Origin: Oculina patagonica
Taxonomy: Eukaryota
Assembly (NCBI RefSeq): GCF_052425735.1
Contig: NC_135768.1
Coordinates: 13,082,001 to 13,146,000, forward strand
Direction of reading: 5' to 3'
DNA: 64,000 nt
Shown: piece by piece, positions 1-17,920 of the stretch
Numbering within the stretch: position 1 is the first letter of the stretch
How the letters are laid out: each line of letters begins with the position of its first letter
Made by a program: the position numbers and the translations under genes
Notes under the pieces: generated by a model
What the model saw: the letters and a program-made list of their open reading frames with translations, nothing else
Databases searched by the model: none
Told to the model about the DNA's origin: nothing

Positions 1-22
1 AAAAAAACATTTAATTGAAAAT

Positions 23-199
23 TCATTGTTCCCCTTCTTCTTGAGCGCTTTCGCGCACTTTCACGAAAATATCTGGGTTTTTTGCAATCCAAACGATTGT
101 TTTGACGCACTTTTCCGTGAAATTTATCCAAACCAAGCCAACCGTTGAAACTGCAGCAACGGTTAACATAAACTGTTGGATGTCAGGGACTTTCCACAT
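23..199 (-). CDS. Small 58-aa membrane protein (MWKVPDIQQFMLTVAAVSTVGLVWINF...)
   Basis: ATG at 199 in TAAAATG context like neighbouring viral genes; one hydrophobic segment. The longer 142-aa ORF call overlaps the 241-762 gene and is probably not real upstream of 199. Confidence 0.55.
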   Translation of the reverse strand: MWKVPDIQQFMLTVAAVSTVGLVWINFTEKCVKTIVWIAKNPDIFVKVRESAQEEGEQ

Positions 200-240
200 T
201 TTATTATAAAATGATGAAAAAATATTTAATTGAAAGTTTA

Positions 241-762
241 TTAATCCATCGGACGAATTCCTCTTTTTGGTTGCGGAATTTTCGATGATGCGCTGATTCG
301 CTGCCGCTCTGCAGGAGCCTCTTGAGCTGGCTCGGGTTCTGGTGCCGTGCCTTTGGCTGGGTGGGTTTTGCTCTTGATAAAGGCTTTGATGTCTTCGCGT
401 TTGACATAAGTTGTAATAATTGCAACGCCAATGCCCAGCAAAGAGATCCATTGATTTGTGCTTAGACCGCTGGATTCCGGCGGAGACTCGGTCGGAGCTG
501 GTTCCGTTACGGGTGGAGTTACATTTCGCTTAGCAGCCGCAGATTTCTTTTCCTTTTCTTTTGCAATTATGGCAGCGGCCTCGACAGCAGCTTTTTTCTG
601 TGCTTCACGAGCCTGTTTTGTTTTTTCAGCTGCAAGCTTGCCAGCAGCCACTCGCTTTGGATTTTTGGCAGGTTTTGTTGCAGGAGTTGTTGAAGTGACT
701 TGTGGAACGTTTTCTTGAACAACTGCAGGTTCGCTCGGTATTTGTGTTTCAGGGTCCGCCAT
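241..762 (-). CDS. 173-aa basic/low-complexity protein with KNPKRVAAGK motif and one TM helix (candidate core/membrane protein)
   Basis: ATG in TAAATG context; Lys/Ala-rich helix; hydrophobic WISLLGIGVAIITTYV segment. Confidence 0.75.
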   Translation of the reverse strand: MADPETQIPSEPAVVQENVPQVTSTTPATKPAKNPKRVAAGKLAAEKTKQAREAQKKAAVEAAAIIAKEKEKKSAAAKRNVTPPVTEPAPTESPPESSGLSTNQWISLLGIGVAIITTYVKREDIKAFIKSKTHPAKGTAPEPEPAQEAPAERQRISASSKIPQPKRGIRPMD

Positions 763-876
763 TTATTAGAAAAAATAATATATTTAAATGAAAAATGCTT
801 AGCAAAGTTTTTTGGTCAGCATTTAATGAGCATTGTTCAGTAATTACTTAGCATTTTCTTAGCATTGCTTAGTAAT

Positions 877-1437
877 TTACTCAGGAAGATCTTTATGCTC
901 GCTTTCTAGAGTCGCTTGTGGTGCTGTGCTGTAATCAATGTGCTTTGCCGTTATCAAAGCAACAGAAGCTGGAGCAAGAAACTTGCCGTATTTGAAAGAC
1001 AAACCGCCGACAAGATTGGAAAGCTCGTTGTTGATGATGTAGTCATTTTTAAGCTCTTTTTGCAAAGCTTCAATATTTTTTAAGGGCACGAACAGACTTG
1101 CGGCTTTCGTAAAAAGAGTGAGCGCGCTGTCGATAAGATTTTCTGTGGTCTTGGCCCCAACATACGCTTCGTACCTCTTGAAGTACTTTTCGACGTCTTT
1201 CTCGGTCAAGCGCTTTACCTGCTCGTGAGTTAGCTGCACACCGATTGCTTCTTTAGACTTGCCTGTTGAAACAAGTCTTGCAAGCTGTTCACGTAAAGCT
1301 GGAATGTCAGGTCCCGCTGCTTGCATCTCTGACGGCATACTGCCTGGTTCAGGTTCAAGCAATTCCATTACGGACGTTTCCAACATAATTCGTTCACTTG
1401 CAGTGATATCGGTGGAAGTTGCGAACGGGTCAGCCAT
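877..1437 (-). CDS. 186-aa hypothetical viral protein (only full-length copy)
   Basis: ATG in TAAATG context, helical composition; copies 2 and 3 are cut by the tandem junction. Confidence 0.75.
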   Translation of the reverse strand: MADPFATSTDITASERIMLETSVMELLEPEPGSMPSEMQAAGPDIPALREQLARLVSTGKSKEAIGVQLTHEQVKRLTEKDVEKYFKRYEAYVGAKTTENLIDSALTLFTKAASLFVPLKNIEALQKELKNDYIINNELSNLVGGLSFKYGKFLAPASVALITAKHIDYSTAPQATLESEHKDLPE

Positions 1438-1458
1438 TTATTACTCAAAAAAATATGT

Positions 1459-1835
1459 TCAATAAAAAAATTCTGTGCCGTAAGGGTGGCGATGAGAAAT
1501 AACAATAACAAGAACTCCCCCGTTCGCCCTTTCACATCTTTAGAAGCAGCGCAGTCGTCGAGGATGATAAGCGTGTTCGCACCCTCAAAAAGAAATCTTG
1601 AAAGCTTTAACCAAGATTCAACCTCGTGCTGCTCGCAAATGAAAACAAAAAATCGAAGATCTTCCTCAGCAAAGCGATAATAAGTCTTGTTGTGCGCGAA
1701 AGTCGGGCATATGAGCACGATGTAGTCAAACTTGCCTCGGAAAGGGCCACAAAGCTGATTGACCACGTACCTTGTTTTTCCTGAGTTTGTTGGTCCCACA
1801 ATGAGGGCGTTGAAGGGAATATTGGAAGGATCCAT
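1459..1835 (-). pseudogene. A32/FtsK-HerA-type genome packaging ATPase, internally deleted and frameshifted (copy 1)
   Basis: Walker A GPTNSGKT and Walker B LIILDD are present. The frame becomes nonsense after KGRTGE, the Arg-finger (xRH) and sensor (TQ) motifs are missing, and a plausible native C-terminus (..VISHRHPYGTEFFY*) lies in another frame ending at 1459. Confidence 0.8.
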
Positions 1836-1866
1836 GTCAGAACAGAACTTCGTTTGCGTTCGTATA

Positions 1867-3120
1867 TTATAAAAGCACAGATTCTAACTGCCTGTTAATT
1901 ATGTTCATCTGGGCGTCGCTGATTACGTAAATGTGGCAGTTCAAATTACCTGAGCCGCTTGTTTTCCTCTCTAGCTCAAGCTGGACACCGTCCTTTGTGT
2001 TCACAAGGCGCTTGCCGCTTCCGTGCATCGAGTGGTCAGCCATGGAACGCAGATCAATCAGAAGGCCGAACTTGTCTTCTGTGTAAAACTTTTGCAGGGT
2101 CATGTGCTGCGTTTTATTTTTTTCTTTCATGTAGAATCTTTTAACTTCTTCCCATATGTCCATTCCTTCGATGCCGTTGTTGTACAGCATGTTTGGCGAG
2201 CCGTTGACAGTGACGCTTACTTTTGTAAGGTCTGGGTTAATGTACTTTTCCGAGATCCTTGCACCTTTTGCATATTGCTCTATAAAAAGTAGCAAGATAC
2301 CTTTTAGGGACCTCCTCTGAGGGTTGACCTTAAGATTCAGACGTGTGTCGGATCCTTTTGCAAAAGTAACAACTTCGGCACGCTGGATGTGGTCGTAAGC
2401 GAACTCTTTGCCGCCCGAGTAAGCGCTGAATGCCTCATCTGCAATTTCTTTGCTTCTTATCATCTCGTACTCCAGCTGGATGTTTGTCAGCTTGTATTTC
2501 AGTTTTGTTGCATCTGAGCCTCTTACAACATGTTCGGCTGCCGCGAGCTTCAGTTCAAAAACAAGATCGTTGTATAGTGCCTGAGGATAAAATGCCCCGT
2601 GGTCAGTTAAAATCTGGTGATCCAGACGGATCCGGTATTTATTTCCATATAGCTCATTCAGCTTTTTTTCTGCTTCGACTCCTGAAGTTTTCTTATCGCC
2701 AGCATTTGAGCGAATTTTGTTGAGGTCCTCGCTCTGAATGCCCTCTGGCACCCTGTCGTCGCGCTCCTCCTGCGAAAGGAAAAAATCCTCAAATATTTTG
2801 TAGATGTCATAGCCAACCGTGTCCTGCACGACGGTGCCTTCGTACTTTACAACAAACTTGTCGACCAGAGCTCGGCTGACGTTGTCAACCAGAAAGTTGT
2901 TGGCATGGCCTCCGCTCAAGTCGATGTTGAAGCGCAGCGCCAGCGAGCCAGGCACAATGACCTCGTTTTCGTTCAGCTTTGGCACCGAAACATACAGAGT
3001 TTCCTCTGGATTGGCTTCAGTGCGGTCAAAAGTGATTCGTTTTACAGCGCGCTCGGCTTTCAGTGCGCCGAGTATTTTCTCTGTGCGTCCCGGTCGAAGG
3101 TTTTCTTGAACAGCAGCCAT
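1867..3120 (-). CDS. Putative major capsid protein (double jelly-roll, Polinton/PLV type), 417 aa, copy 1
   Basis: Size and beta-strand-rich pattern (LYVSVP..VIVPGSLALRFNIDL; KYKLTNIQLEYEMI; RSLKGILLLF; KFGLLIDLRS); adjacent to the packaging ATPase. Confidence 0.75.
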   Translation of the reverse strand: MAAVQENLRPGRTEKILGALKAERAVKRITFDRTEANPEETLYVSVPKLNENEVIVPGSLALRFNIDLSGGHANNFLVDNVSRALVDKFVVKYEGTVVQDTVGYDIYKIFEDFFLSQEERDDRVPEGIQSEDLNKIRSNAGDKKTSGVEAEKKLNELYGNKYRIRLDHQILTDHGAFYPQALYNDLVFELKLAAAEHVVRGSDATKLKYKLTNIQLEYEMIRSKEIADEAFSAYSGGKEFAYDHIQRAEVVTFAKGSDTRLNLKVNPQRRSLKGILLLFIEQYAKGARISEKYINPDLTKVSVTVNGSPNMLYNNGIEGMDIWEEVKRFYMKEKNKTQHMTLQKFYTEDKFGLLIDLRSMADHSMHGSGKRLVNTKDGVQLELERKTSGSGNLNCHIYVISDAQMNIINRQLESVLL

Positions 3121-3182
3121 CTCTCGATTGGTTTTATTGTTAAATTGAAAAGTTTAATTTGAAAATATATATAAATTACGTG

Positions 3183-4613
3183 ATGGCAACAGGTGGTGGT
3201 GATTTTGGATTCGAGGACCCTGATTTGGACCAAGATCTTGACCACAACAGTGATAACGATGATGAAGAGGAACAAGAGGTCGACACAACCCGACCATTTC
3301 AGCCCGGTTGGGTATCCACACCATACCATCGGGGTGAACAACACGAAATGCAAACGATGCAGCACGAACAGAGCGGGCTGCCAGAAACATCCTACGACGA
3401 AACACCTTTGCTTGAAAGAACCCCTTCAATAAGTGATCTTCAAAATGAAAGTAATTTGCGACAAAAACTAAAAAAAGCAGTAGACATGATAAAAGGCAAA
3501 TTTCCCAAAGCAAACTTTGAAAAAATAAAAATCAGAAGAGGCAAAGGGAAAAATGAGGGTAAAATTGTTGCTGTAGGAACAAAAAAAGGCGAGTACAAGA
3601 TTCTAAAAGAAAATGAGTCAGGCTTCATGAAAAGCTTTTTAGACAGCTTCAAAGATGAACTTGGGCCGTCAGCTGAAGATCTTATTGCTCAAGACAATGA
3701 GAGCATAAGAGATGAACGCCAAAGATTAAGAGAAGCTGAACGCCAAAGATTAAGAGAAGCTGAAAAACAACTTCAAGAGGCCCAAAAACTCGCATCGGAA
3801 AAAGAAAAAGCCGCCCTAGAAGTGCAAGATCTGAGAAACAGAATCGAGCGAACTCAAGCTCAGATTGAAGCACTTACTCAAGAACACGGTTCGAATCTTG
3901 AAAGTGATTCAGAACTACGGAGACTGCAGCAACTGAAAAAAAATTATCAAAAGGATCTTGACAACGCGAAAAAAGAGGTGGTAGCCATTGAAAAACAATC
4001 GAAGCAGAAGACAAAAGAACAAACACGGGTCGACCAACTCAGGGCAAGCCTCGCTGCCAAAGAGAGAGAAAGAAACACTTTGCAAGAAAGGCTCAACGAC
4101 ACAAGAGCGTTGGATGATCTAAAAGAGCAAGAAGCCGAGCTGAAGCGACAAAACGATGAAGATCAAGCAGTAATACAGGATGAAAATACCTCCCCCACTG
4201 ACAAACAAGCTGCTGAAGAAAGAGTTGCTGAAAGAACCGAGGAGCTCGCGCGTTTGCAAACGCAGATTGCGGAAAGAGAAAGGGCGCTTCCACTTCGTGA
4301 GAGAATCAAAGAGATCTTCAAAAAAAATGGCGTGACAGTAACAGCAATCTTTCTTGCTGCTGGTGTCACGATTGGTGCTGTAATTGGTGCCATTACAAAC
4401 TCTTTGAAGGCTACCGGCAAAGCGTTGGGGAAAGGCTTAAGTGATGTTGGCTCAAAGGTGGCATCAGCTCTGCCCGGTCTTATTGGCTCGATTGTAAGTT
4501 TTCTTTTCAAAACAGCTGGTCAAGTAATTGGCTTTCTTGCAGAGCACACCTGGCTGCTTATACTTGCTGCGGTTGCTTTTCTTGTTGAAAGATACATCAA
4601 GAAGAGACGTTAA
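3183..4613 (+). CDS. 476-aa protein: acidic N-terminus, long coiled coil, C-terminal hydrophobic/amphipathic helices (candidate membrane-penetration or tape-measure-like protein), copy 1
   Basis: ATG at 3183 (ORF-track start at 3159 is non-ATG); E/K/Q/R heptads; GVTVTAIFLAAGVTIGAVIGAI and WLLILAAVAFLV segments; ERQRLREA in-frame duplication. Confidence 0.8.
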   Translation: MATGGGDFGFEDPDLDQDLDHNSDNDDEEEQEVDTTRPFQPGWVSTPYHRGEQHEMQTMQHEQSGLPETSYDETPLLERTPSISDLQNESNLRQKLKKAVDMIKGKFPKANFEKIKIRRGKGKNEGKIVAVGTKKGEYKILKENESGFMKSFLDSFKDELGPSAEDLIAQDNESIRDERQRLREAERQRLREAEKQLQEAQKLASEKEKAALEVQDLRNRIERTQAQIEALTQEHGSNLESDSELRRLQQLKKNYQKDLDNAKKEVVAIEKQSKQKTKEQTRVDQLRASLAAKERERNTLQERLNDTRALDDLKEQEAELKRQNDEDQAVIQDENTSPTDKQAAEERVAERTEELARLQTQIAERERALPLRERIKEIFKKNGVTVTAIFLAAGVTIGAVIGAITNSLKATGKALGKGLSDVGSKVASALPGLIGSIVSFLFKTAGQVIGFLAEHTWLLILAAVAFLVERYIKKRR

Positions 4614-5860
4614 CGCATAAGGGCGTAGAGCAAAGCTGCAGCTCCAACCGCACCAACAGCGATAGTTGCTTTGTTTATTTCGTGTGTATCATTGACTTCG
4701 ACCTTTGTAGCTTTAGCGCTTTGCGCGCTTTCAGCTTCAGCACCTTCGGTGCTCGTTGGTGCCGGAGTTTTTTTTGTGTCCCTTTGAGACTCCTTGTGTA
4801 TAGGATTTGAAGGGTGGCTGTTTGGTGGGTTTACCTTTGATGGTCCTCCGGCCATCAGTTTAAGAGCTGCTTTTTTTGTTGATTTATTAACATCATTATT
4901 CAATCCTATTTTCATTCCTGCTACAGCCTGCTTCAGCTGATTGTTGTAGCCGACAACGCTTTCTGTGTTTATCACCATACTACCCGGCATCAGCCAGGCA
5001 CCAGGGCAGACAGCAAGGTTAAGCCGAACCTTCGCTTCATCGATAGAAAGTTGGTATCTTTGAACTGACTTTGCCAGATCTGGTTGCCTTATAGCGTCTT
5101 CAACCAACACGAGGAACTCACTTTGAGCCTCCTTTGCGCGGCCGCCTGTGCCAAGTATGCTACTTCGAACGTTGACCTGCGAACCCAGAATACAGTAGAC
5201 AAAAGCCTCTATCGACTGGTTTACTCTCGACAAACCTGCCTGAGTCAGACCTTCTGCGGCGTTAGGACAAAACCAGTCTGCCTGTGCATATGCAGCGTCG
5301 TCTGGCTCGATATATTGAATTAAGTTACCCTTGCTTGCAGCTCCCCCTTCGTCCGAAAATTTATCGTAATCGGGGTATTTTGCTCCAGAATTTTTTGGTC
5401 CAATGTTAGTAAACCAGATATAAACATCACCAAGCCCATGATTGGCGCCTCTTGTGAAACGAAAATCGCTTGACGGGTCGACACCGAACTCAGCGCATAT
5501 TCTTTTATACGAAGCCACGTCGTACTTGTTGTCGAACTGGCTAAACGTTGGGTCGCCTGGCAAGGCGCTTACGCTCTGAATTCCGCCCATCTGAAACAAT
5601 ATTCGCCTTATTGTAAAATAAACGTGAAAAAGGTAAAAATTACGCACAACAGGTGGCAAACTGAGAGCTGAGTGTTCTTCATCAAAAATTTCACGACTTA
5701 TCCCACTGCCTGTTGTCGCGCACCAGACAGCAAAGTTAAGTTGTTGAGGCCAGTAGCCAATATTTGGACTAGCAAGCCACCTTTTTGACTCTTTTCCTGA
5801 TGTATGCTTCAGTTTTGTTTTTTGAAAAATCTCTCTTAATTTCGTTGTGAAATATTGATC
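4610..5860 (-). pseudogene. 5'-truncated copy of the 571-aa gene
   Basis: Identical to 14180-15430 but lacks the promoter and first ~155 codons because of the tandem junction. Confidence 0.85.
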
Positions 5861-6222
5861 AATATTGAAATATTGAACAGACTTGCGGCTTTCGTAAAAA
5901 GAGTGAGCGCGCTGTCGATAAGATTTTCTGTGGTCTTGGCCCCAACATACGCTTCGTACCTCTTGAAGTACTTTTCGACGTCTTTCTCGGTCAAGCGCTT
6001 TACCTGCTCGTGAGTTAGCTGCACACCGATTGCTTCTTTAGACTTGCCTGTTGAAACAAGTCTTGCAAGCTGTTCACGTAAAGCTGGAATGTCAGGTCCC
6101 GCTGCTTGCATCTCTGACGGCATACTGCCTGGTTCAGGTTCAAGCAATTCCATTACGGACGTTTCCAACATAATTCGTTCACTTGCAGTGATATCGGTGG
6201 AAGTTGCGAACGGGTCAGCCAT
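5836..6222 (-). pseudogene. 3'-truncated copy of the 186-aa gene (reads through filler to NISILINISQRN*)
   Basis: Identical N-terminus to 877-1437 up to the breakpoint at 5875. Confidence 0.85.
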
Positions 6223-6243
6223 TTATTACTCAAAAAAATATGT

Positions 6244-6620
6244 TCAATAAAAAAATTCTGTGCCGTAAGGGTGGCGATGAGAAATAACAATAACAAGAAC
6301 TCCCCCGTTCGCCCTTTCACATCTTTAGAAGCAGCGCAGTCGTCGAGGATGATAAGCGTGTTCGCACCCTCAAAAAGAAATCTTGAAAGCTTTAACCAAG
6401 ATTCAACCTCGTGCTGCTCGCAAATGAAAACAAAAAATCGAAGATCTTCCTCAGCAAAGCGATAATAAGTCTTGTTGTGCGCGAAAGTCGGGCATATGAG
6501 CACGATGTAGTCAAACTTGCCTCGGAAAGGGCCACAAAGCTGATTGACCACGTACCTTGTTTTTCCTGAGTTTGTTGGTCCCACAATGAGGGCGTTGAAG
6601 GGAATATTGGAAGGATCCAT
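6244..6620 (-). pseudogene. Deleted packaging ATPase, copy 2
   Basis: Same translation as copy 1. Confidence 0.8.
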
Positions 6621-6651
6621 GTCAGAACAGAACTTCGTTTGCGTTCGTATA

Positions 6652-7905
6652 TTATAAAAGCACAGATTCTAACTGCCTGTTAATTATGTTCATCTGGGCG
6701 TCGCTGATTACGTAAATGTGGCAGTTCAAATTACCTGAGCCGCTTGTTTTCCTCTCTAGCTCAAGCTGGACACCGTCCTTTGTGTTCACAAGGCGCTTGC
6801 CGCTTCCGTGCATCGAGTGGTCAGCCATGGAACGCAGATCAATCAGAAGGCCGAACTTGTCTTCTGTGTAAAACTTTTGCAGGGTCATGTGCTGCGTTTT
6901 ATTTTTTTCTTTCATGTAGAATCTTTTAACTTCTTCCCATATGTCCATTCCTTCGATGCCGTTGTTGTACAGCATGTTTGGCGAGCCGTTGACAGTGACG
7001 CTTACTTTTGTAAGGTCTGGGTTAATGTACTTTTCCGAGATCCTTGCACCTTTTGCATATTGCTCTATAAAAAGTAGCAAGATACCTTTTAGGGACCTCC
7101 TCTGAGGGTTGACCTTAAGATTCAGACGTGTGTCGGATCCTTTTGCAAAAGTAACAACTTCGGCACGCTGGATGTGGTCGTAAGCGAACTCTTTGCCGCC
7201 CGAGTAAGCGCTGAATGCCTCATCTGCAATTTCTTTGCTTCTTATCATCTCGTACTCCAGCTGGATGTTTGTCAGCTTGTATTTCAGTTTTGTTGCATCT
7301 GAGCCTCTTACAACATGTTCGGCTGCCGCGAGCTTCAGTTCAAAAACAAGATCGTTGTATAGTGCCTGAGGATAAAATGCCCCGTGGTCAGTTAAAATCT
7401 GGTGATCCAGACGGATCCGGTATTTATTTCCATATAGCTCATTCAGCTTTTTTTCTGCTTCGACTCCTGAAGTTTTCTTATCGCCAGCATTTGAGCGAAT
7501 TTTGTTGAGGTCCTCGCTCTGAATGCCCTCTGGCACCCTGTCGTCGCGCTCCTCCTGCGAAAGGAAAAAATCCTCAAATATTTTGTAGATGTCATAGCCA
7601 ACCGTGTCCTGCACGACGGTGCCTTCGTACTTTACAACAAACTTGTCGACCAGAGCTCGGCTGACGTTGTCAACCAGAAAGTTGTTGGCATGGCCTCCGC
7701 TCAAGTCGATGTTGAAGCGCAGCGCCAGCGAGCCAGGCACAATGACCTCGTTTTCGTTCAGCTTTGGCACCGAAACATACAGAGTTTCCTCTGGATTGGC
7801 TTCAGTGCGGTCAAAAGTGATTCGTTTTACAGCGCGCTCGGCTTTCAGTGCGCCGAGTATTTTCTCTGTGCGTCCCGGTCGAAGGTTTTCTTGAACAGCA
7901 GCCAT
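6652..7905 (-). CDS. Putative major capsid protein, copy 2
   Basis: Identical protein to 1867-3120. Confidence 0.75.
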   Translation of the reverse strand: MAAVQENLRPGRTEKILGALKAERAVKRITFDRTEANPEETLYVSVPKLNENEVIVPGSLALRFNIDLSGGHANNFLVDNVSRALVDKFVVKYEGTVVQDTVGYDIYKIFEDFFLSQEERDDRVPEGIQSEDLNKIRSNAGDKKTSGVEAEKKLNELYGNKYRIRLDHQILTDHGAFYPQALYNDLVFELKLAAAEHVVRGSDATKLKYKLTNIQLEYEMIRSKEIADEAFSAYSGGKEFAYDHIQRAEVVTFAKGSDTRLNLKVNPQRRSLKGILLLFIEQYAKGARISEKYINPDLTKVSVTVNGSPNMLYNNGIEGMDIWEEVKRFYMKEKNKTQHMTLQKFYTEDKFGLLIDLRSMADHSMHGSGKRLVNTKDGVQLELERKTSGSGNLNCHIYVISDAQMNIINRQLESVLL

Positions 7906-7967
7906 CTCTCGATTGGTTTTATTGTTAAATTGAAAAGTTTAATTTGAAAATATATATAAATTACGTG

Positions 7968-9398
7968 ATGGCAACAGGTGGTGGTGATTTTGGATTCGAG
8001 GACCCTGATTTGGACCAAGATCTTGACCACAACAGTGATAACGATGATGAAGAGGAACAAGAGGTCGACACAACCCGACCATTTCAGCCCGGTTGGGTAT
8101 CCACACCATACCATCGGGGTGAACAACACGAAATGCAAACGATGCAGCACGAACAGAGCGGGCTGCCAGAAACATCCTACGACGAAACACCTTTGCTTGA
8201 AAGAACCCCTTCAATAAGTGATCTTCAAAATGAAAGTAATTTGCGACAAAAACTAAAAAAAGCAGTAGACATGATAAAAGGCAAATTTCCCAAAGCAAAC
8301 TTTGAAAAAATAAAAATCAGAAGAGGCAAAGGGAAAAATGAGGGTAAAATTGTTGCTGTAGGAACAAAAAAAGGCGAGTACAAGATTCTAAAAGAAAATG
8401 AGTCAGGCTTCATGAAAAGCTTTTTAGACAGCTTCAAAGATGAACTTGGGCCGTCAGCTGAAGATCTTATTGCTCAAGACAATGAGAGCATAAGAGATGA
8501 ACGCCAAAGATTAAGAGAAGCTGAACGCCAAAGATTAAGAGAAGCTGAAAAACAACTTCAAGAGGCCCAAAAACTCGCATCGGAAAAAGAAAAAGCCGCC
8601 CTAGAAGTGCAAGATCTGAGAAACAGAATCGAGCGAACTCAAGCTCAGATTGAAGCACTTACTCAAGAACACGGTTCGAATCTTGAAAGTGATTCAGAAC
8701 TACGGAGACTGCAGCAACTGAAAAAAAATTATCAAAAGGATCTTGACAACGCGAAAAAAGAGGTGGTAGCCATTGAAAAACAATCGAAGCAGAAGACAAA
8801 AGAACAAACACGGGTCGACCAACTCAGGGCAAGCCTCGCTGCCAAAGAGAGAGAAAGAAACACTTTGCAAGAAAGGCTCAACGACACAAGAGCGTTGGAT
8901 GATCTAAAAGAGCAAGAAGCCGAGCTGAAGCGACAAAACGATGAAGATCAAGCAGTAATACAGGATGAAAATACCTCCCCCACTGACAAACAAGCTGCTG
9001 AAGAAAGAGTTGCTGAAAGAACCGAGGAGCTCGCGCGTTTGCAAACGCAGATTGCGGAAAGAGAAAGGGCGCTTCCACTTCGTGAGAGAATCAAAGAGAT
9101 CTTCAAAAAAAATGGCGTGACAGTAACAGCAATCTTTCTTGCTGCTGGTGTCACGATTGGTGCTGTAATTGGTGCCATTACAAACTCTTTGAAGGCTACC
9201 GGCAAAGCGTTGGGGAAAGGCTTAAGTGATGTTGGCTCAAAGGTGGCATCAGCTCTGCCCGGTCTTATTGGCTCGATTGTAAGTTTTCTTTTCAAAACAG
9301 CTGGTCAAGTAATTGGCTTTCTTGCAGAGCACACCTGGCTGCTTATACTTGCTGCGGTTGCTTTTCTTGTTGAAAGATACATCAAGAAGAGACGTTAA
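7968..9398 (+). CDS. Coiled-coil membrane protein, copy 2
   Basis: Identical protein to 3183-4613. Confidence 0.8.
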   Translation: MATGGGDFGFEDPDLDQDLDHNSDNDDEEEQEVDTTRPFQPGWVSTPYHRGEQHEMQTMQHEQSGLPETSYDETPLLERTPSISDLQNESNLRQKLKKAVDMIKGKFPKANFEKIKIRRGKGKNEGKIVAVGTKKGEYKILKENESGFMKSFLDSFKDELGPSAEDLIAQDNESIRDERQRLREAERQRLREAEKQLQEAQKLASEKEKAALEVQDLRNRIERTQAQIEALTQEHGSNLESDSELRRLQQLKKNYQKDLDNAKKEVVAIEKQSKQKTKEQTRVDQLRASLAAKERERNTLQERLNDTRALDDLKEQEAELKRQNDEDQAVIQDENTSPTDKQAAEERVAERTEELARLQTQIAERERALPLRERIKEIFKKNGVTVTAIFLAAGVTIGAVIGAITNSLKATGKALGKGLSDVGSKVASALPGLIGSIVSFLFKTAGQVIGFLAEHTWLLILAAVAFLVERYIKKRR

Positions 9399-10645
9399 CG
9401 CATAAGGGCGTAGAGCAAAGCTGCAGCTCCAACCGCACCAACAGCGATAGTTGCTTTGTTTATTTCGTGTGTATCATTGACTTCGACCTTTGTAGCTTTA
9501 GCGCTTTGCGCGCTTTCAGCTTCAGCACCTTCGGTGCTCGTTGGTGCCGGAGTTTTTTTTGTGTCCCTTTGAGACTCCTTGTGTATAGGATTTGAAGGGT
9601 GGCTGTTTGGTGGGTTTACCTTTGATGGTCCTCCGGCCATCAGTTTAAGAGCTGCTTTTTTTGTTGATTTATTAACATCATTATTCAATCCTATTTTTAT
9701 TCCTGCTACAGCCTGCTTCAGCTGATTGTTGTAGCCGACAACGCTTTCTGTGTTTATCACCATACTACCCGGCATCAGCCAGGCACCAGGGCAGACAGCA
9801 AGGTTAAGCCGAACCTTCGCTTCATCGATAGAAAGTTGGTATCTTTGAACTGACTTTGCCAGATCTGGTTGCCTTATAGCGTCTTCAACCAACACGAGGA
9901 ACTCACTTTGAGCCTCCTTTGCGCGGCCGCCTGTGCCAAGTATGCTACTTCGAACGTTGACCTGCGAACCCAGAATACAGTAGACAAAAGCCTCTATCGA
10001 CTGGTTTACTCTCGACAAACCTGCCTGAGTCAGACCTTCTGCGGCGTTAGGACAAAACCAGTCTGCCTGTGCATATGCAGCGTCGTCTGGCTCGATATAT
10101 TGAATTAAGTTACCCTTGCTTGCAGCTCCCCCTTCGTCCGAAAATTTATCGTAATCGGGGTATTTTGCTCCAGAATTTTTTGGTCCAATGTTAGTAAACC
10201 AGATATAAACATCACCAAGCCCATGATTGGCGCCTCTTGTGAAACGAAAATCGCTTGACGGGTCGACACCGAACTCAGCGCATATTCTTTTATACGAAGC
10301 CACGTCGTACTTGTTGTCGAACTGGCTAAACGTTGGGTCGCCTGGCAAGGCGCTTACGCTCTGAATTCCGCCCATCTGAAACAATATTCGCCTTATTGTA
10401 AAATAAACGTGAAAAAGGTAAAAATTACGCACAACAGGTGGCAAACTGAGAGCTGAGTGTTCTTCATCAAAAATTTCACGACTTATCCCACTGCCTGTTG
10501 TCGCGCACCAGACAGCAAAGTTAAGTTGTTGAGGCCAGTAGCCAATATTTGGACTAGCAAGCCACCTTTTTGACTCTTTTCCTGATGTATGCTTCAGTTT
10601 TGTTTTTTGAAAAATCTCTCTTAATTTCGTTGTGAAATATTGATC
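9395..10645 (-). pseudogene. 5'-truncated copy of the 571-aa gene (carries the C>T variant at 9698, M>I)
   Basis: Repeat unit 2; AGIKIG versus AGMKIG in the other copies. Confidence 0.85.
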
Positions 10646-11007
10646 AATATTGAAATATTGAACAGACTTGCGGCTTTCGTAAAAAGAGTGAGCGCGCTGT
10701 CGATAAGATTTTCTGTGGTCTTGGCCCCAACATACGCTTCGTACCTCTTGAAGTACTTTTCGACGTCTTTCTCGGTCAAGCGCTTTACCTGCTCGTGAGT
10801 TAGCTGCACACCGATTGCTTCTTTAGACTTGCCTGTTGAAACAAGTCTTGCAAGCTGTTCACGTAAAGCTGGAATGTCAGGTCCCGCTGCTTGCATCTCT
10901 GACGGCATACTGCCTGGTTCAGGTTCAAGCAATTCCATTACGGACGTTTCCAACATAATTCGTTCACTTGCAGTGATATCGGTGGAAGTTGCGAACGGGT
11001 CAGCCAT
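10621..11007 (-). pseudogene. 3'-truncated copy of the 186-aa gene
   Basis: As 5836-6222. Confidence 0.85.
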
Positions 11008-11028
11008 TTATTACTCAAAAAAATATGT

Positions 11029-11405
11029 TCAATAAAAAAATTCTGTGCCGTAAGGGTGGCGATGAGAAATAACAATAACAAGAACTCCCCCGTTCGCCCT
11101 TTCACATCTTTAGAAGCAGCGCAGTCGTCGAGGATGATAAGCGTGTTCGCACCCTCAAAAAGAAATCTTGAAAGCTTTAACCAAGATTCAACCTCGTGCT
11201 GCTCGCAAATGAAAACAAAAAATCGAAGATCTTCCTCAGCAAAGCGATAATAAGTCTTGTTGTGCGCGAAAGTCGGGCATATGAGCACGATGTAGTCAAA
11301 CTTGCCTCGGAAAGGGCCACAAAGCTGATTGACCACGTACCTTGTTTTTCCTGAGTTTGTTGGTCCCACAATGAGGGCGTTGAAGGGAATATTGGAAGGA
11401 TCCAT
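11029..11405 (-). pseudogene. Deleted packaging ATPase, copy 3
   Basis: Same translation as copy 1. Confidence 0.8.
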
Positions 11406-11436
11406 GTCAGAACAGAACTTCGTTTGCGTTCGTATA

Positions 11437-12690
11437 TTATAAAAGCACAGATTCTAACTGCCTGTTAATTATGTTCATCTGGGCGTCGCTGATTACGTAA
11501 ATGTGGCAGTTCAAATTACCTGAGCCGCTTGTTTTCCTCTCTAGCTCAAGCTGGACACCGTCCTTTGTGTTCACAAGGCGCTTGCCGCTTCCGTGCATCG
11601 AGTGGTCAGCCATGGAACGCAGATCAATCAGAAGGCCGAACTTGTCTTCTGTGTAAAACTTTTGCAGGGTCATGTGCTGCGTTTTATTTTTTTCTTTCAT
11701 GTAGAATCTTTTAACTTCTTCCCATATGTCCATTCCTTCGATGCCGTTGTTGTACAGCATGTTTGGCGAGCCGTTGACAGTGACGCTTACTTTTGTAAGG
11801 TCTGGGTTAATGTACTTTTCCGAGATCCTTGCACCTTTTGCATATTGCTCTATAAAAAGTAGCAAGATACCTTTTAGGGACCTCCTCTGAGGGTTGACCT
11901 TAAGATTCAGACGTGTGTCGGATCCTTTTGCAAAAGTAACAACTTCGGCACGCTGGATGTGGTCGTAAGCGAACTCTTTGCCGCCCGAGTAAGCGCTGAA
12001 TGCCTCATCTGCAATTTCTTTGCTTCTTATCATCTCGTACTCCAGCTGGATGTTTGTCAGCTTGTATTTCAGTTTTGTTGCATCTGAGCCTCTTACAACA
12101 TGTTCGGCTGCCGCGAGCTTCAGTTCAAAAACAAGATCGTTGTATAGTGCCTGAGGATAAAATGCCCCGTGGTCAGTTAAAATCTGGTGATCCAGACGGA
12201 TCCGGTATTTATTTCCATATAGCTCATTCAGCTTTTTTTCTGCTTCGACTCCTGAAGTTTTCTTATCGCCAGCATTTGAGCGAATTTTGTTGAGGTCCTC
12301 GCTCTGAATGCCCTCTGGCACCCTGTCGTCGCGCTCCTCCTGCGAAAGGAAAAAATCCTCAAATATTTTGTAGATGTCATAGCCAACCGTGTCCTGCACG
12401 ACGGTGCCTTCGTACTTTACAACAAACTTGTCGACCAGAGCTCGGCTGACGTTGTCAACCAGAAAGTTGTTGGCATGGCCTCCGCTCAAGTCGATGTTGA
12501 AGCGCAGCGCCAGCGAGCCAGGCACAATGACCTCGTTTTCGTTCAGCTTTGGCACCGAAACATACAGAGTTTCCTCTGGATTGGCTTCAGTGCGGTCAAA
12601 AGTGATTCGTTTTACAGCGCGCTCGGCTTTCAGTGCGCCGAGTATTTTCTCTGTGCGTCCCGGTCGAAGGTTTTCTTGAACAGCAGCCAT
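11437..12690 (-). CDS. Putative major capsid protein, copy 3
   Basis: Identical protein to 1867-3120. Confidence 0.75.
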   Translation of the reverse strand: MAAVQENLRPGRTEKILGALKAERAVKRITFDRTEANPEETLYVSVPKLNENEVIVPGSLALRFNIDLSGGHANNFLVDNVSRALVDKFVVKYEGTVVQDTVGYDIYKIFEDFFLSQEERDDRVPEGIQSEDLNKIRSNAGDKKTSGVEAEKKLNELYGNKYRIRLDHQILTDHGAFYPQALYNDLVFELKLAAAEHVVRGSDATKLKYKLTNIQLEYEMIRSKEIADEAFSAYSGGKEFAYDHIQRAEVVTFAKGSDTRLNLKVNPQRRSLKGILLLFIEQYAKGARISEKYINPDLTKVSVTVNGSPNMLYNNGIEGMDIWEEVKRFYMKEKNKTQHMTLQKFYTEDKFGLLIDLRSMADHSMHGSGKRLVNTKDGVQLELERKTSGSGNLNCHIYVISDAQMNIINRQLESVLL

Positions 12691-12752
12691 CTCTCGATTG
12701 GTTTTATTGTTAAATTGAAAAGTTTAATTTGAAAATATATATAAATTACGTG

Positions 12753-14183
12753 ATGGCAACAGGTGGTGGTGATTTTGGATTCGAGGACCCTGATTTGGAC
12801 CAAGATCTTGACCACAACAGTGATAACGATGATGAAGAGGAACAAGAGGTCGACACAACCCGACCATTTCAGCCCGGTTGGGTATCCACACCATACCATC
12901 GGGGTGAACAACACGAAATGCAAACGATGCAGCACGAACAGAGCGGGCTGCCAGAAACATCCTACGACGAAACACCTTTGCTTGAAAGAACCCCTTCAAT
13001 AAGTGATCTTCAAAATGAAAGTAATTTGCGACAAAAACTAAAAAAAGCAGTAGACATGATAAAAGGCAAATTTCCCAAAGCAAACTTTGAAAAAATAAAA
13101 ATCAGAAGAGGCAAAGGGAAAAATGAGGGTAAAATTGTTGCTGTAGGAACAAAAAAAGGCGAGTACAAGATTCTAAAAGAAAATGAGTCAGGCTTCATGA
13201 AAAGCTTTTTAGACAGCTTCAAAGATGAACTTGGGCCGTCAGCTGAAGATCTTATTGCTCAAGACAATGAGAGCATAAGAGATGAACGCCAAAGATTAAG
13301 AGAAGCTGAACGCCAAAGATTAAGAGAAGCTGAAAAACAACTTCAAGAGGCCCAAAAACTCGCATCGGAAAAAGAAAAAGCCGCCCTAGAAGTGCAAGAT
13401 CTGAGAAACAGAATCGAGCGAACTCAAGCTCAGATTGAAGCACTTACTCAAGAACACGGTTCGAATCTTGAAAGTGATTCAGAACTACGGAGACTGCAGC
13501 AACTGAAAAAAAATTATCAAAAGGATCTTGACAACGCGAAAAAAGAGGTGGTAGCCATTGAAAAACAATCGAAGCAGAAGACAAAAGAACAAACACGGGT
13601 CGACCAACTCAGGGCAAGCCTCGCTGCCAAAGAGAGAGAAAGAAACACTTTGCAAGAAAGGCTCAACGACACAAGAGCGTTGGATGATCTAAAAGAGCAA
13701 GAAGCCGAGCTGAAGCGACAAAACGATGAAGATCAAGCAGTAATACAGGATGAAAATACCTCCCCCACTGACAAACAAGCTGCTGAAGAAAGAGTTGCTG
13801 AAAGAACCGAGGAGCTCGCGCGTTTGCAAACGCAGATTGCGGAAAGAGAAAGGGCGCTTCCACTTCGTGAGAGAATCAAAGAGATCTTCAAAAAAAATGG
13901 CGTGACAGTAACAGCAATCTTTCTTGCTGCTGGTGTCACGATTGGTGCTGTAATTGGTGCCATTACAAACTCTTTGAAGGCTACCGGCAAAGCGTTGGGG
14001 AAAGGCTTAAGTGATGTTGGCTCAAAGGTGGCATCAGCTCTGCCCGGTCTTATTGGCTCGATTGTAAGTTTTCTTTTCAAAACAGCTGGTCAAGTAATTG
14101 GCTTTCTTGCAGAGCACACCTGGCTGCTTATACTTGCTGCGGTTGCTTTTCTTGTTGAAAGATACATCAAGAAGAGACGTTAA
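12753..14183 (+). CDS. Coiled-coil membrane protein, copy 3
   Basis: Identical protein to 3183-4613. Confidence 0.8.
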   Translation: MATGGGDFGFEDPDLDQDLDHNSDNDDEEEQEVDTTRPFQPGWVSTPYHRGEQHEMQTMQHEQSGLPETSYDETPLLERTPSISDLQNESNLRQKLKKAVDMIKGKFPKANFEKIKIRRGKGKNEGKIVAVGTKKGEYKILKENESGFMKSFLDSFKDELGPSAEDLIAQDNESIRDERQRLREAERQRLREAEKQLQEAQKLASEKEKAALEVQDLRNRIERTQAQIEALTQEHGSNLESDSELRRLQQLKKNYQKDLDNAKKEVVAIEKQSKQKTKEQTRVDQLRASLAAKERERNTLQERLNDTRALDDLKEQEAELKRQNDEDQAVIQDENTSPTDKQAAEERVAERTEELARLQTQIAERERALPLRERIKEIFKKNGVTVTAIFLAAGVTIGAVIGAITNSLKATGKALGKGLSDVGSKVASALPGLIGSIVSFLFKTAGQVIGFLAEHTWLLILAAVAFLVERYIKKRR

Positions 14184-15895
14184 CGCATAAGGGCGTAGAG
14201 CAAAGCTGCAGCTCCAACCGCACCAACAGCGATAGTTGCTTTGTTTATTTCGTGTGTATCATTGACTTCGACCTTTGTAGCTTTAGCGCTTTGCGCGCTT
14301 TCAGCTTCAGCACCTTCGGTGCTCGTTGGTGCCGGAGTTTTTTTTGTGTCCCTTTGAGACTCCTTGTGTATAGGATTTGAAGGGTGGCTGTTTGGTGGGT
14401 TTACCTTTGATGGTCCTCCGGCCATCAGTTTAAGAGCTGCTTTTTTTGTTGATTTATTAACATCATTATTCAATCCTATTTTCATTCCTGCTACAGCCTG
14501 CTTCAGCTGATTGTTGTAGCCGACAACGCTTTCTGTGTTTATCACCATACTACCCGGCATCAGCCAGGCACCAGGGCAGACAGCAAGGTTAAGCCGAACC
14601 TTCGCTTCATCGATAGAAAGTTGGTATCTTTGAACTGACTTTGCCAGATCTGGTTGCCTTATAGCGTCTTCAACCAACACGAGGAACTCACTTTGAGCCT
14701 CCTTTGCGCGGCCGCCTGTGCCAAGTATGCTACTTCGAACGTTGACCTGCGAACCCAGAATACAGTAGACAAAAGCCTCTATCGACTGGTTTACTCTCGA
14801 CAAACCTGCCTGAGTCAGACCTTCTGCGGCGTTAGGACAAAACCAGTCTGCCTGTGCATATGCAGCGTCGTCTGGCTCGATATATTGAATTAAGTTACCC
14901 TTGCTTGCAGCTCCCCCTTCGTCCGAAAATTTATCGTAATCGGGGTATTTTGCTCCAGAATTTTTTGGTCCAATGTTAGTAAACCAGATATAAACATCAC
15001 CAAGCCCATGATTGGCGCCTCTTGTGAAACGAAAATCGCTTGACGGGTCGACACCGAACTCAGCGCATATTCTTTTATACGAAGCCACGTCGTACTTGTT
15101 GTCGAACTGGCTAAACGTTGGGTCGCCTGGCAAGGCGCTTACGCTCTGAATTCCGCCCATCTGAAACAATATTCGCCTTATTGTAAAATAAACGTGAAAA
15201 AGGTAAAAATTACGCACAACAGGTGGCAAACTGAGAGCTGAGTGTTCTTCATCAAAAATTTCACGACTTATCCCACTGCCTGTTGTCGCGCACCAGACAG
15301 CAAAGTTAAGTTGTTGAGGCCAGTAGCCAATATTTGGACTAGCAAGCCACCTTTTTGACTCTTTTCCTGATGTATGCTTCAGTTTTGTTTTTTGAAAAAT
15401 CTCTCTTAATTTCGTTGTGAAATATTGATCTGGTGTTACGTAGATGTTGATTTTGCTGTTAAATATTTTTTTCAAACTCGGTGCGGCTTCGTGAAATCCA
15501 ACCGCGGGAATTGGTAAAGATGCGCCTTTTGCGCCGCTTGGTGACAGCTGTTGTGGAAAACCGCCTGAAATTTGATTCACCCCCAGTGCTTTTTTCATCT
15601 CTGGGCTCCAATATTTGCTGTCAGAGCCAAAAACATTTATCAAATGGCCTTGCTCTGCCTTGTAATAAATGTCTGCCGTTGCTGTGTGGTTGTACGCGAA
15701 CTCAACCTGTGCAACAAATTTTGTTCGGTCAGCGTTTGGATATTTTGCAAGAAAAGGTTTCCATGCCTTGTCTTTTGCCGCTTCAGAAATTGTAGTTGCT
15801 TCTGGGGTTTTCATCCACTTCATAAAATCTCTTTCTTTGGAATCAAGAAAAATTGATTGAGAAATGTCATCAGCTCTCGGAATAGGCGGAGCCAT
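14180..15895 (-). CDS. 571-aa uncharacterised viral protein with C-terminal TM anchor (only full-length copy)
   Basis: Long ORF with ATG in TAAAATG context; conserved-looking core WPQQLNFAVWCATTG..FHVYFTIRRIL; Pro/Ser/Ala linker then IAVGAVGAAALLYALMR tail anchor. Confidence 0.8.
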   Translation of the reverse strand: MAPPIPRADDISQSIFLDSKERDFMKWMKTPEATTISEAAKDKAWKPFLAKYPNADRTKFVAQVEFAYNHTATADIYYKAEQGHLINVFGSDSKYWSPEMKKALGVNQISGGFPQQLSPSGAKGASLPIPAVGFHEAAPSLKKIFNSKINIYVTPDQYFTTKLREIFQKTKLKHTSGKESKRWLASPNIGYWPQQLNFAVWCATTGSGISREIFDEEHSALSLPPVVRNFYLFHVYFTIRRILFQMGGIQSVSALPGDPTFSQFDNKYDVASYKRICAEFGVDPSSDFRFTRGANHGLGDVYIWFTNIGPKNSGAKYPDYDKFSDEGGAASKGNLIQYIEPDDAAYAQADWFCPNAAEGLTQAGLSRVNQSIEAFVYCILGSQVNVRSSILGTGGRAKEAQSEFLVLVEDAIRQPDLAKSVQRYQLSIDEAKVRLNLAVCPGAWLMPGSMVINTESVVGYNNQLKQAVAGMKIGLNNDVNKSTKKAALKLMAGGPSKVNPPNSHPSNPIHKESQRDTKKTPAPTSTEGAEAESAQSAKATKVEVNDTHEINKATIAVGAVGAAALLYALMR

Positions 15896-15935
15896 TTTAT
15901 ATTAAAGATTTATTTTTCAAAAGATAATTATAAAG

Positions 15936-16619
15936 ATGGTTGTGCTCACTGTCACCACAACAAAAAATCCGAAAACTGTTTATTTTGACCAGCCTATTCC
16001 TAAACCGAGCTATATCCGGCTGCTAAGTTGTTCTCTTTACAACAGCTGGAATAGTTTGGAAGAGGATGGAATAGTTTCTTACAAAAAAGGGAACGAGGAA
16101 AAGGAGGAAATGCGTTTTATACGGCAAGGAAACTACTCACTCGACGACATTGGGGATATTTTTGAAAAAGGATTTCCAGAGAAAAATATGTTTTCTGTAA
16201 AAAAAGGCATTACGGGTCGTTCCTTAATAATAAAAGCAAACGAGGCCAAAATTAAAACTTTTAGACTGAATGAAAGTCTTATTAAGTTCTTAAATCTGTG
16301 GGTTCTTAGTGATACTGATTTTCTTAATCAAATTGTGGTAAATAATGTTTCAAATCCTAAAAATTACTTCATCAACTGTGACCTTATTGACAAGCAACAA
16401 AGCTTGCTAAATGGTAAGCCTTCAAGCCTTTTAGCTTGTTTTGACATACGAGGGAAACCGTATGAAAAAATTCATTACCAAAATAAGCATCTTAACGTCT
16501 TGCGCGACGTTGCGGCTGAAGAAAATGTATCATCTCTGACTCTTTCGATAAGAGATGAAAATGAAAATCTATTCGAATTTAACGGCTTAAATCTTGCATA
16601 TGAGATAGAATTAAATTAA
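15936..16619 (+). CDS. Putative minor capsid protein / penton (single jelly-roll), 227 aa
   Basis: Motifs typical of Polinton/PLV pentons: IRLLSCSLYNSW, YFINCDLID..NGKPSSLLACF, SSLTLSIRDEN..FNG. Confidence 0.75.
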   Translation: MVVLTVTTTKNPKTVYFDQPIPKPSYIRLLSCSLYNSWNSLEEDGIVSYKKGNEEKEEMRFIRQGNYSLDDIGDIFEKGFPEKNMFSVKKGITGRSLIIKANEAKIKTFRLNESLIKFLNLWVLSDTDFLNQIVVNNVSNPKNYFINCDLIDKQQSLLNGKPSSLLACFDIRGKPYEKIHYQNKHLNVLRDVAAEENVSSLTLSIRDENENLFEFNGLNLAYEIELN

Positions 16620-16654
16620 ATTAAATACAAAAATAAAATTAAAAGTATACGACC

Positions 16655-17353
16655 ATGTCTTCAGCTAACGTGCTCCCAAGTGCACCTGCGTTTGGTGTTT
16701 GTGCAGAAGACAGCGTAAAACACGCGGAAATACAAACACTGTATCCCGCTTTGCCAAATCAACCAGAAAACTTTAGGTTAACAAAAATCAATCAAATTTG
16801 TTCAGAGTTTGACAAAGAAGTTGTAAAATACCGAGCTGTTTTGAAAAAGTATAAAAAGGTGAAGTCTGTTTTCCATTATTCCGCAATTTCAATGGGTGGT
16901 TTGTCCAGTGTTCTCTCTGCTTCCAGTCTTGGCACCGCGGTAACGGTCGTTGGTTTGCCGGTAAGCGTTCCTCTCGCTGCATGTGCTGCCATTACAGGCG
17001 TCTTGTCTGCCGCTTTCACTGGAGCGAGCAAAAAACTTGAACCAAAAATTATGAAAAATAATGAAATTACTTCGCTTGCTGTTGCCAAACGTGAAACTGT
17101 CAATAGACTTGTTTCTGCCGCTCTCATTGACAATAAAGTTGATGACAAAGAGTTTAAAATTATTTTGGATGAATATTCTCGTTACATGGCCCTCAAAGAG
17201 ACTGTTCGCAGGCACCTTACAAAAAATTTAAGCCAAAAAAAGTCATCCCCACAGCCTGACATTGAGAAACTGAGACAGGAAATTCGACAAGAAGAATTGG
17301 CTTGGTTAAAAAAAAGAATATCAGCAGAGTCGAAATCAGATTTGAGAAAATAA
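16655..17353 (+). CDS. 232-aa protein with central hydrophobic hairpin flanked by helices (membrane-active family seen in Polinton-like elements)
   Basis: LYP.LP..FRL.KI..KKYKK motif, Gly/Ala/Ser-rich hydrophobic stretch, VSAALIDNKVDDKEFKIILDEY; AATAAA at 17349 and 17382. Confidence 0.7.
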   Translation: MSSANVLPSAPAFGVCAEDSVKHAEIQTLYPALPNQPENFRLTKINQICSEFDKEVVKYRAVLKKYKKVKSVFHYSAISMGGLSSVLSASSLGTAVTVVGLPVSVPLAACAAITGVLSAAFTGASKKLEPKIMKNNEITSLAVAKRETVNRLVSAALIDNKVDDKEFKIILDEYSRYMALKETVRRHLTKNLSQKKSSPQPDIEKLRQEIRQEELAWLKKRISAESKSDLRK

Positions 17354-17395
17354 ACACTGGATTTAATCTGAGTGTTCAGAAAAATAAAATTAACG

Positions 17396-17482
17396 CATGA
17401 CACAAATCGTGACATTGTGTTACACACAGCGTGACATTGTGTGACACAGAGCGTTACAGTCACGCGTGACGTTGCGTGACAG
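17396..17482. repeat. Phased GT(G/T)AC repeat array, spacing 10-13 bp
   Basis: T(G/T)AC cores at 17398, 17410, 17420, 17432, 17442, 17454, 17467, 17477; palindrome GTCACGCGTGAC at 17459-17470. Confidence 0.8.
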
Positions 17483-17497
17483 GTCAAACGAAAGGGC

Positions 17498-17799
17498 AAA
17501 ACCCTGGTCGGGGGGTGCTCGTTGGCTGTTTCTTGCCTAGCCCCGGCTAGGACTTTTCCCCGCCGCTGACAAGGCGGCTGTCCCGCATTTTTACCTCTGC
17601 CGAGGTTTGAAATCCCGAGGGATTTCTGAGCACCCCCACGTTATCAGTAGGGCCGAGGCGGGTTCACCCAGGGGTATCTCCCACTGAAAGGAGTCCCCCT
17701 ATACCCCGTAATTCACCATCCGCACAAGCCATTATAACAGGATTCAAGTGGTTGGCCATCCACTACCTCCCTTGACTTCACCAGAATTTGTGAACTAAC
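17498..17799 (-). ncRNA. Candidate ~300-nt structured non-coding RNA encoded by the element
   Basis: GC-rich and lacking any long ORF. A 10-bp closing helix (17511-17520/17628-17637) encloses four perfect hairpins; further stem 17671-17677/17701-17707. Upstream PSE-like + TATA; the first T4 on the minus strand falls right after the closing helix. Confidence 0.55.
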
Positions 17800-17821
17800 A
17801 AAAAGTTACGGCCGCGTTAAC

Positions 17822-17920
17822 TTATATATAGTTCACTTTGTCACATTTTTCACTTGTGGTACCCTTTCACCTATTTTGAGCAAGTACGCATGCGCTTTTG
17901 GGCATCAGGATGATGTCATC
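17822..17920 (-). promoter_or_regulatory. TATA box (TATATATAA 17830-17822), PSE-like GGTACCACAAGTGAAAAATGTG (17863-17842), NRF1-like ACGCATGCGC (17886-17895), CRE-like TGATGTCA (17911-17918)
   Basis: Motifs read directly; PSE-TATA spacing is close to that of U6-type promoters; Inr-like TTAGTT at 17798-17793. Confidence 0.5.

Follow-up and report, generated by a model that had tools for sequence, protein, structure and literature searches.

The window analysed here is the whole 64,000-nucleotide stretch of contig NC_135768.1 (assembly GCF_052425735.1, forward strand, positions 13,082,001 to 13,146,000) of the stony coral Oculina patagonica. It contains most of a young Polinton/Maverick element of the group 2 type, and the genes of this element and its relatives are preceded by a conserved signal composed of a core, WTTRRA, and a TATA that follows it. 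The core lies 21-36 nt upstream of the ATG at 105 of 116 starts, against about 29 expected, and the signal is stronger than was recognised in a preliminary description made from the letters of this DNA alone. To our knowledge, animal Polintons encode no RNA polymerase and no virion has been seen, and the motif bears on their mode of transcription and their possible autonomy.

The starts were drawn from 80 metagenome loci (the best 80 of 340; capsid identity 65-73%). Orthologous starts were chosen, near-duplicates were removed and two starts from the window were added, giving 138 rows, or 116 without those of the A32 ATPase gene; 13 rows, 11 of them non-ATPase, were discarded by eye as internal starts ahead of counting. 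Motif discovery across relatives, which the preliminary description had proposed, returned an enriched signal, although this consists of WTTRRA plus TATA and not of the words quoted there. The motif obtained by expectation-maximization, T-N-W-W-T-T-R-A-A, has a log-likelihood of 118.7, compared with 10-15 in three shuffled sets. Among divergent or first genes, 60 of 65 have the core (18.7 in shuffled sequences), as do 45 of 51 tandem genes (10.3 shuffled), and when the counting interval is moved to neighbouring positions it is found in only 17, 13 and 4 of 116. At host ATGs its frequency is 6.8 % of 2,424, and the 105 of 116 element starts also exceed the AT-matched host background (11.9 % of 405 ATGs). 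Within the element itself the core stands ahead of 12 of the 13 genes.

Because the WTTRRA pattern was derived from the counted rows themselves, it was checked by leaving out one family at a time and by using sibling starts. It held in nine of nine families, being equalled by none of 60 shuffles in eight families and by one of 60 in the other. Among 27 hand-picked sibling starts of the same genome, which lay outside the training rows, 21 carry the core; the six misses comprise two ATPase starts, one core placed at 37 nt, one start without a core, and two 72-aa open reading frames (ORFs) with a first ATG that lies too near. The core also persists across swapped coding cassettes, including pPolB (25 % identical) and capsid (57 % identical). 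It is free of the preceding stop codon in 35 of 44 tandem genes and is therefore not a by-product of stop codons. The distance from its central purine (A in 52 %, G in 43 %) to the TATA peaks at 18-20 nt and is tighter than the distance from TATA to ATG. A palindromic form, TTYAWTTRAA, occurs at 20 of 116 starts, where 0.6 are expected.

The words from which the signal was first suspected are present in the window, with TAATAAATG at 762 and 1437, TAAAATG at 199 and 15895, TTTCAWTTAAA at 9-20, 224-235 and 782-793, and TTTCAATTTAA at 3140-3150. The gene predicted to the left of the window was found as a 72-aa ORF whose ATG stands 31 nt to the left of base 1, and the intergenic gaps are indeed short (31-114 nt). 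The proposed bipartite motif was correct in so far as a position-fixed two-part signal exists, but the quoted pair occurs together at only two of the 13 starts (199 and 762): the starts at 1437 and 15895 lack TTTCAWTT, and the start at 3120 and the gene behind 9-20 lack TAAATG. TTTCAWTT is itself enriched (19 of 116, 0.9 expected), although only as the palindromic subset of a more general core.

The element extends from 5,907 nt left of window base 1 to window position 19123, and has terminal inverted repeats (TIRs) of 377 bp that begin AGTAGT and a 5-bp target site duplication (TSD), AAAAC, on both sides; the termini of sibling elements end ACACAC. Left of the window the same element carries pPolB (plus strand; PF03175, E 4e-12 with Pfam profiles), an rve integrase (minus strand; PF00665, E 4e-6, under the profile cut-off), a 141-aa ORF and the 72-aa ORF. 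The features in the window are as follows (window positions; strand in brackets where one applies; promoters as predicted).

1-19123, Polinton/Maverick element, whose left end lies 5,907 nt outside the window
9-20 (minus), promoter core ATTAAAT (10-15) of the 72-aa ORF left of the window, with TATA 19 nt downstream
23-199 (minus), 58-aa small ORF without a Pfam match
200-235 (minus), promoter of the 58-aa ORF, with core at 225-230 and a TA block 19-24 nt downstream
241-762 (minus), 173-aa ORF with a single hydrophobic stretch
763-793 (minus), promoter of the 173-aa ORF, with core at 783-788 and a TA block 17-20 nt downstream
877-1437 (minus), 186-aa helical ORF, kept in relatives and without a fold match
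1438-1470 (minus), promoter of the 186-aa ORF, with core ATTGAAC at 1458-1463
1368-1835 (minus), A32 packaging ATPase, broken, the sole gene without a core
1867-3120 (minus), 417-aa putative major capsid protein
3121-3182, divergent promoter of the capsid and 476-aa genes, with cores at 3153-3158 (minus) and at 3144-3149 and 3158-3163 (plus)
3183-4613 (plus), 476-aa coiled-coil ORF with hydrophobic C-terminus, overlapping the stop of the opposite gene, with no AATAAA downstream
1090-15430, internal block of 4,785 bp in three tandem copies
14180-15895 (minus), 571-aa ORF, of which residues 372-442 are weakly like adenovirus capsid chains
15896-15935, 40-nt divergent promoter, with cores at 15916-15921 (minus) and 15901-15906 (plus)
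15936-16619 (plus), 227-aa ORF, likely minor capsid protein
16610-16654 (plus), promoter of the 232-aa ORF, with three overlapping ATTAAAT cores and TATA ahead of the ATG
16655-17353 (plus), 232-aa ORF with a hydrophobic hairpin
18389-18934 (minus), 181-aa ORF starting in the right TIR, with a pPolB N-terminus fused to a C2H2-like finger
18747-19123, right TIR, 377 bp, ending ACTACT, in which the pPolB promoter is repeated (core 18955-18960, minus)
19124-19128 (plus), TSD AAAAC, the same 5 nt as ahead of the left TIR

The 4,785-bp block is present three times within a 16-kb span in copies 99.98-100 % identical, so repeats inside this span are not independent, and the span covered by the preliminary description holds 11 different gene starts and not three times that number. 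The triplication is either a recent duplication or an assembly artefact. The A32 ATPase (PF04665) is truncated in the window copy, where about 230 nt have been lost near 1505-1512, the sibling protein being 199 aa long, and the window copy is probably defective because of this truncation and the triplicated block. In the 529-Mb genome the capsid gene has at least 100 near-identical copies, all 100 scored among 402 candidate loci being 96-100 % identical. The 417-aa ORF has 1,841 relatives, and no Pfam and no PDB sequence match was obtained for it; its nearest named relatives are labelled Oculina patagonica (93-99 % identity). By size, position and copy pattern it is putatively the major capsid protein, and a candidate for the double jelly-roll type. 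The 227-aa ORF is likely a minor capsid protein, as judged from size and position. Profile scans gave no match to an adenovirus-type cysteine protease among the ORFs of the studied family; a weak match (PF00770) was confined to a co-resident Polinton family, and group 2 Mavericks are likewise described without a protease (10.64898/2026.06.19.733378). Gene-by-gene module swaps were observed within one family (L119-L146 compared with the window), with pPolB 25 %, capsid 57 %, the 476-aa gene 30 % and the 227-aa gene 38 % identical; the other genes of these copies are 90-99 % identical.

In 77 of 114 element starts the TATA of the signal and the ATG are 3-20 nt apart. Coral histone genes were used for comparison, and 37 of 46 have a TATA 52-74 nt ahead of the ATG and one of 46 the core. 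The canonical RNA polymerase II (Pol II) geometry, with TATAWA far enough upstream, is seen in only five of 114 element starts. A TATA box is located roughly 24-30 nt from the transcription start (PMC7163114), so that the element TATA, at 3-20 nt from the ATG, is too close to act as one. Its first A falls about +19 to +21 from the core purine. In the vaccinia virus UCE (upstream control element) the G is the 7th of 15 nt and the start lies a median of 12 nt later, at +20, and in yeast linear plasmids the start is 11 nt after the UCS (upstream conserved sequence), found 20-40 nt ahead of the ATG (PMC6211774). Initiators of African swine fever virus (ASFV) are TA or TATA (PMC7458399, PMC7163114), and the polymerase promoter of invertebrate iridescent virus 6 carries the word AAAATTGA nearer its start (PMC5294985). 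If transcription starts at the TATA, the core-to-start geometry would match that of vaccinia early and yeast linear-plasmid promoters, and the coral signal resembles the early class represented by the UCE, the UCS and the ASFV early promoter motif (EPM).

The explanation that leads, at somewhat less than even probability, is that the two-part signal is an early-type promoter of large DNA viruses read by the machinery of a co-infecting helper. Its layout is the core WTTRRA, a TATA 18-20 nt further on and then 2-20 nt to the ATG; the helper would supply the initiation factors and polymerase that read the core, transcription would begin in the TATA and yield very short leaders and one transcript per gene, and the helper would most plausibly have a nuclear phase. 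Among the element ORFs, profile scans recognised no RNA polymerase, TBP, TFIIB or VLTF3; the genome matches to TBP and TFIIB are spliced host loci only, and a very divergent mimic could escape such scans. An iridovirus is on record from a deep-sea coral (PMC13547152), so candidate helpers exist, although this one is unlinked to the element. The seemingly virus-like geometry keeps helper dependence open, and the defined motif with its predicted start base provides a query for a helper virus in coral metagenomes. A broader version, in which this animal Maverick family is an inducible hyperparasite with every gene wired to the early system of a large coral DNA virus, the hundreds of copies in the genome act as an antiviral reserve of virophage type and co-resident families answer to different readers, is considered unlikely. 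If the signal were read by a helper, corals would hold a virophage-like defence, and if it were read by the element itself, the motif would define a private promoter code.

Several observations weigh against a helper-read early promoter. The exact giant-virus consensus words AAAATTGA and AAAANTGAAAA are each found at none of the 116 starts, ATNTGA occurs at 12 (7.1 expected) and WWWWWTGW at 42 (24.2 expected), and the core centre is G in only 43 % and A in 52 %, whereas TGA defines the UCE and UCS. The ATPase gene does not carry the core (four of 22 starts, 2.8 expected), restoration of the discarded rows lowers the count in the worst case to 105 of 127, and the histones used for comparison are one special promoter class. 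Genome searches, weak ones with controls silent in two of the three, found no NCLDV (nucleocytoplasmic large DNA virus) capsid, early transcription factor or D5. In Stylophora, polintovirus genes are expressed in control colonies as well as in heated ones, and no helper was reported (PMC11131425); an autonomous cycle would agree with the hundreds of young nuclear insertions. Nor does a virus-type promoter require a helper, because mriyaviruses, which carry VLTF3 on small genomes (10.64898/2026.06.19.733378), and a co-resident Polinton family encode VLTF3 themselves. No relatives of either capsid protein were present in IMG/VR, and a motif pattern scan of viral contigs, likewise a weak search, gave scattered single matches in unrelated contigs.

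A helper would be dispensable if a DNA-binding protein encoded by the element reads the core and recruits or represses host Pol II, which is doubtful but deserves weight. The partial dyad of the core (TTYAWTTRAA, 20 of 116 starts against 0.6 expected) suits such a reader, and the core within the TIR drives a small basic ORF at the far end in the 10 siblings inspected, with one exception in which the end was not captured. This ORF, the only candidate for an element-encoded reader, is 64 aa long in five, 72 aa in three and 170 aa in two siblings, and the 64-aa form has weak matches to Arc-like repressors (E 0.033 and 0.057) that are below significance, so an Arc-like fold is a tentative label. 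The ORF varies among siblings while the core is constant, the studied family lacks TBP, TFIIB and VLTF3, and a reader placed behind its own core, as pPolB is, would have to be packaged to set off the cascade. The co-resident family, which has its own VLTF3, uses two other motifs and is not enriched in the studied core (8 of 65, 12.4 expected), so promoter codes are family-specific; this argues against a plain host core promoter and is compatible with different helpers and private readers alike. A host-only, non-canonical Pol II promoter, in which the core serves as an initiator or a weak TATA-like box and the TA block as no more than A/T-rich leader and start context, is judged improbable. It would agree with the A that 94 of 138 starts have at -3, with TCAGTTA (like TCAWTTR) about 28 nt ahead of the ATG in coral H4 genes, with published expression without a known helper and, weakly, with the element-ORF contigs in one spliced-RNA run. 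However, a core acting as TATA box would put transcription initiation at the ATG or behind it (core-to-ATG mostly 22-35 nt) and is G-centred in 43 %, a core acting as initiator keeps CA poorly (15 of 71), with TCAKTY at four of 116 (5.8 expected) and no TATA upstream, the fixed core-to-TATA distance is left without explanation, and the co-resident families differ.

The poxvirus-type late promoter of structural genes, with TAAATG as initiator, which the preliminary description had favoured, now appears highly improbable. TAA directly followed by ATG is twice as frequent as chance (32 of 138, 14.7 expected) and occurs before the 227-aa gene in 11 of 14 cases, but the exact word TAAATG is at chance level (8 of 138, 8.1 expected), none of 20 capsid starts ends in TAA plus ATG, and the core stands before pPolB and integrase as it does before the structural genes, so that it is not a late promoter. 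Equally remote is a reading of the motifs as Pol II poly(A) signals or plain AT-rich spacer. ATTAAA and AATAAA are present in several window spacers, but AATAAA, which had been raised as a possible poly(A) signal of the preceding gene, follows within 90 nt after only 13 of 125 stops and is missing at convergent gene ends (0 of 14, 0 of 5 and 0 of 2). With 60 of 65, divergent and terminal promoters have the core as often as others do, and it far exceeds dinucleotide shuffles and AT-matched host DNA. Two other candidates were rejected: AATAAA and TTTTTNT inside element ORFs are not depleted compared with codon shuffles, nor in eight ORFs of long interspersed nuclear elements (LINEs), and do not discriminate, and a sigma-70 look-alike promoter has six sites against 6.3 in shuffles.

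Among known systems, Gezel-14T (PgVV), a virophage-like polinton-like virus (PLV) of Phaeocystis globosa virus, shares the early AAAATTGA of its helper (bioRxiv 10.1101/2022.07.28.501842). It and the coral element are both Polinton-like, with an early-type A/T-TGA motif at genes including the polymerase, AT-rich spacers and, as predicted for the coral element, monocistronic units, but in Gezel-14T the AAAATTGA of a known helper precedes five genes, whereas the coral core precedes 12 of 13 and AAAATTGA never occurs, and the coral element is located in an animal host without a known helper. The UCE, EPM and UCS are similar in having a core 20-40 nt ahead of the ATG (PMC6211774, PMC7458399, PMC7163114), and, as predicted for the coral element, initiation some 20 nt past the central purine, a TATA-like initiator and very short leaders. 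They differ in their invariant TGA and, for the UCE, an upstream A-run, while the coral core is T-T-A/G-A-A with a T-rich flank and is partly palindromic; vaccinia, ASFV and the yeast plasmid replicons also encode their own RNA polymerase, which the coral element does not. Mavirus, its endogenous mavirus-like elements (EMALEs) and Sputnik are likewise integrated with clade-specific promoter motifs, which in EMALE clades differ by helper, but they use late motifs of the helper, whereas the coral motif shows no restriction to late genes and belongs to a Maverick, not to a lavidavirus. Group 2 Mavericks and coral polintoviruses share with it pPolB, an rve integrase, A32 ATPase, a capsid-sized ORF, TIRs and a TSD (PMC11131425, PMC8502044, bioRxiv 10.64898/2026.06.19.733378), as well as swappable modules, the lack of a detected protease and a mass expansion in a stony coral. 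The word promoter is absent from the main text of these three papers, where the coral motif is undescribed; the same holds across the coral, adintovirus, entomopoxvirus-PLV and two 2026 PLV papers, whose supplements could describe a motif. In the literature searched, with subscription papers outside it, promoter sharing is reported for protist virophages and PLVs only (also 10.64898/2026.07.28.741278, 10.1101/2025.10.09.676808).

The RNA contigs of seven runs are assembled contigs and are uninformative on starts, ends and strand. Run X8 contains a spliced host transcript together with element-ORF contigs of about 93 % identity, and contigs of another run span the divergent promoter, for which DNA or read-through is possible. 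A host gene next to the element has exons at 22950-25609 on the minus strand that are joined by one RNA contig of run X8. Structure models of the 186-aa and 571-aa ORFs were of low confidence, with no Foldseek match at E<=0.001, and none of the four sequences tried was present in the ESM Atlas. Adenovirus capsid chains are the best matches to residues 372-442 of the 571-aa model, with 6qi5_N first (Z 6.9, rmsd 3.0, 65 aligned) and then 8roq_N (Z 6.2) and 9lr9_K (Z 5.5), all below the reliable range, and the protein is possibly a cement protein.

The co-resident Polinton family of the same genome (L109-L118, L125-L128; at least 67 loci) has 30 % GC and PLA2-like, protease-like and VLTF3-like genes, VLTF3 being already known for coral polintoviruses. 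Its structural genes have WAT[C/G/A]TAAY and a TATATA adjoining the ATG (ATSTAA in 19 of 65 rows, 2.4 expected), all six of its pPolB starts lie behind ACTTAAAG with TATA 16-19 nt on, and several starts end in TAAATG; this two-class code fits an early/late switch better than the studied family does. In the studied family the pPolB promoter is within the TIR, so that a small basic ORF is driven from the far TIR; it varies, being 64, 72 or 170 aa long or a zinc-finger fusion (window 18747-19123; L121:2937-3131, L141:3235-3453, L133:3409-3921). Judged by the motif, the 72-aa ORF would start at its second ATG. In one sibling (L120:2982-8270) a LINE with endonuclease and reverse transcriptase is inserted in frame within the 571-aa gene, giving a 1,762-aa ORF.

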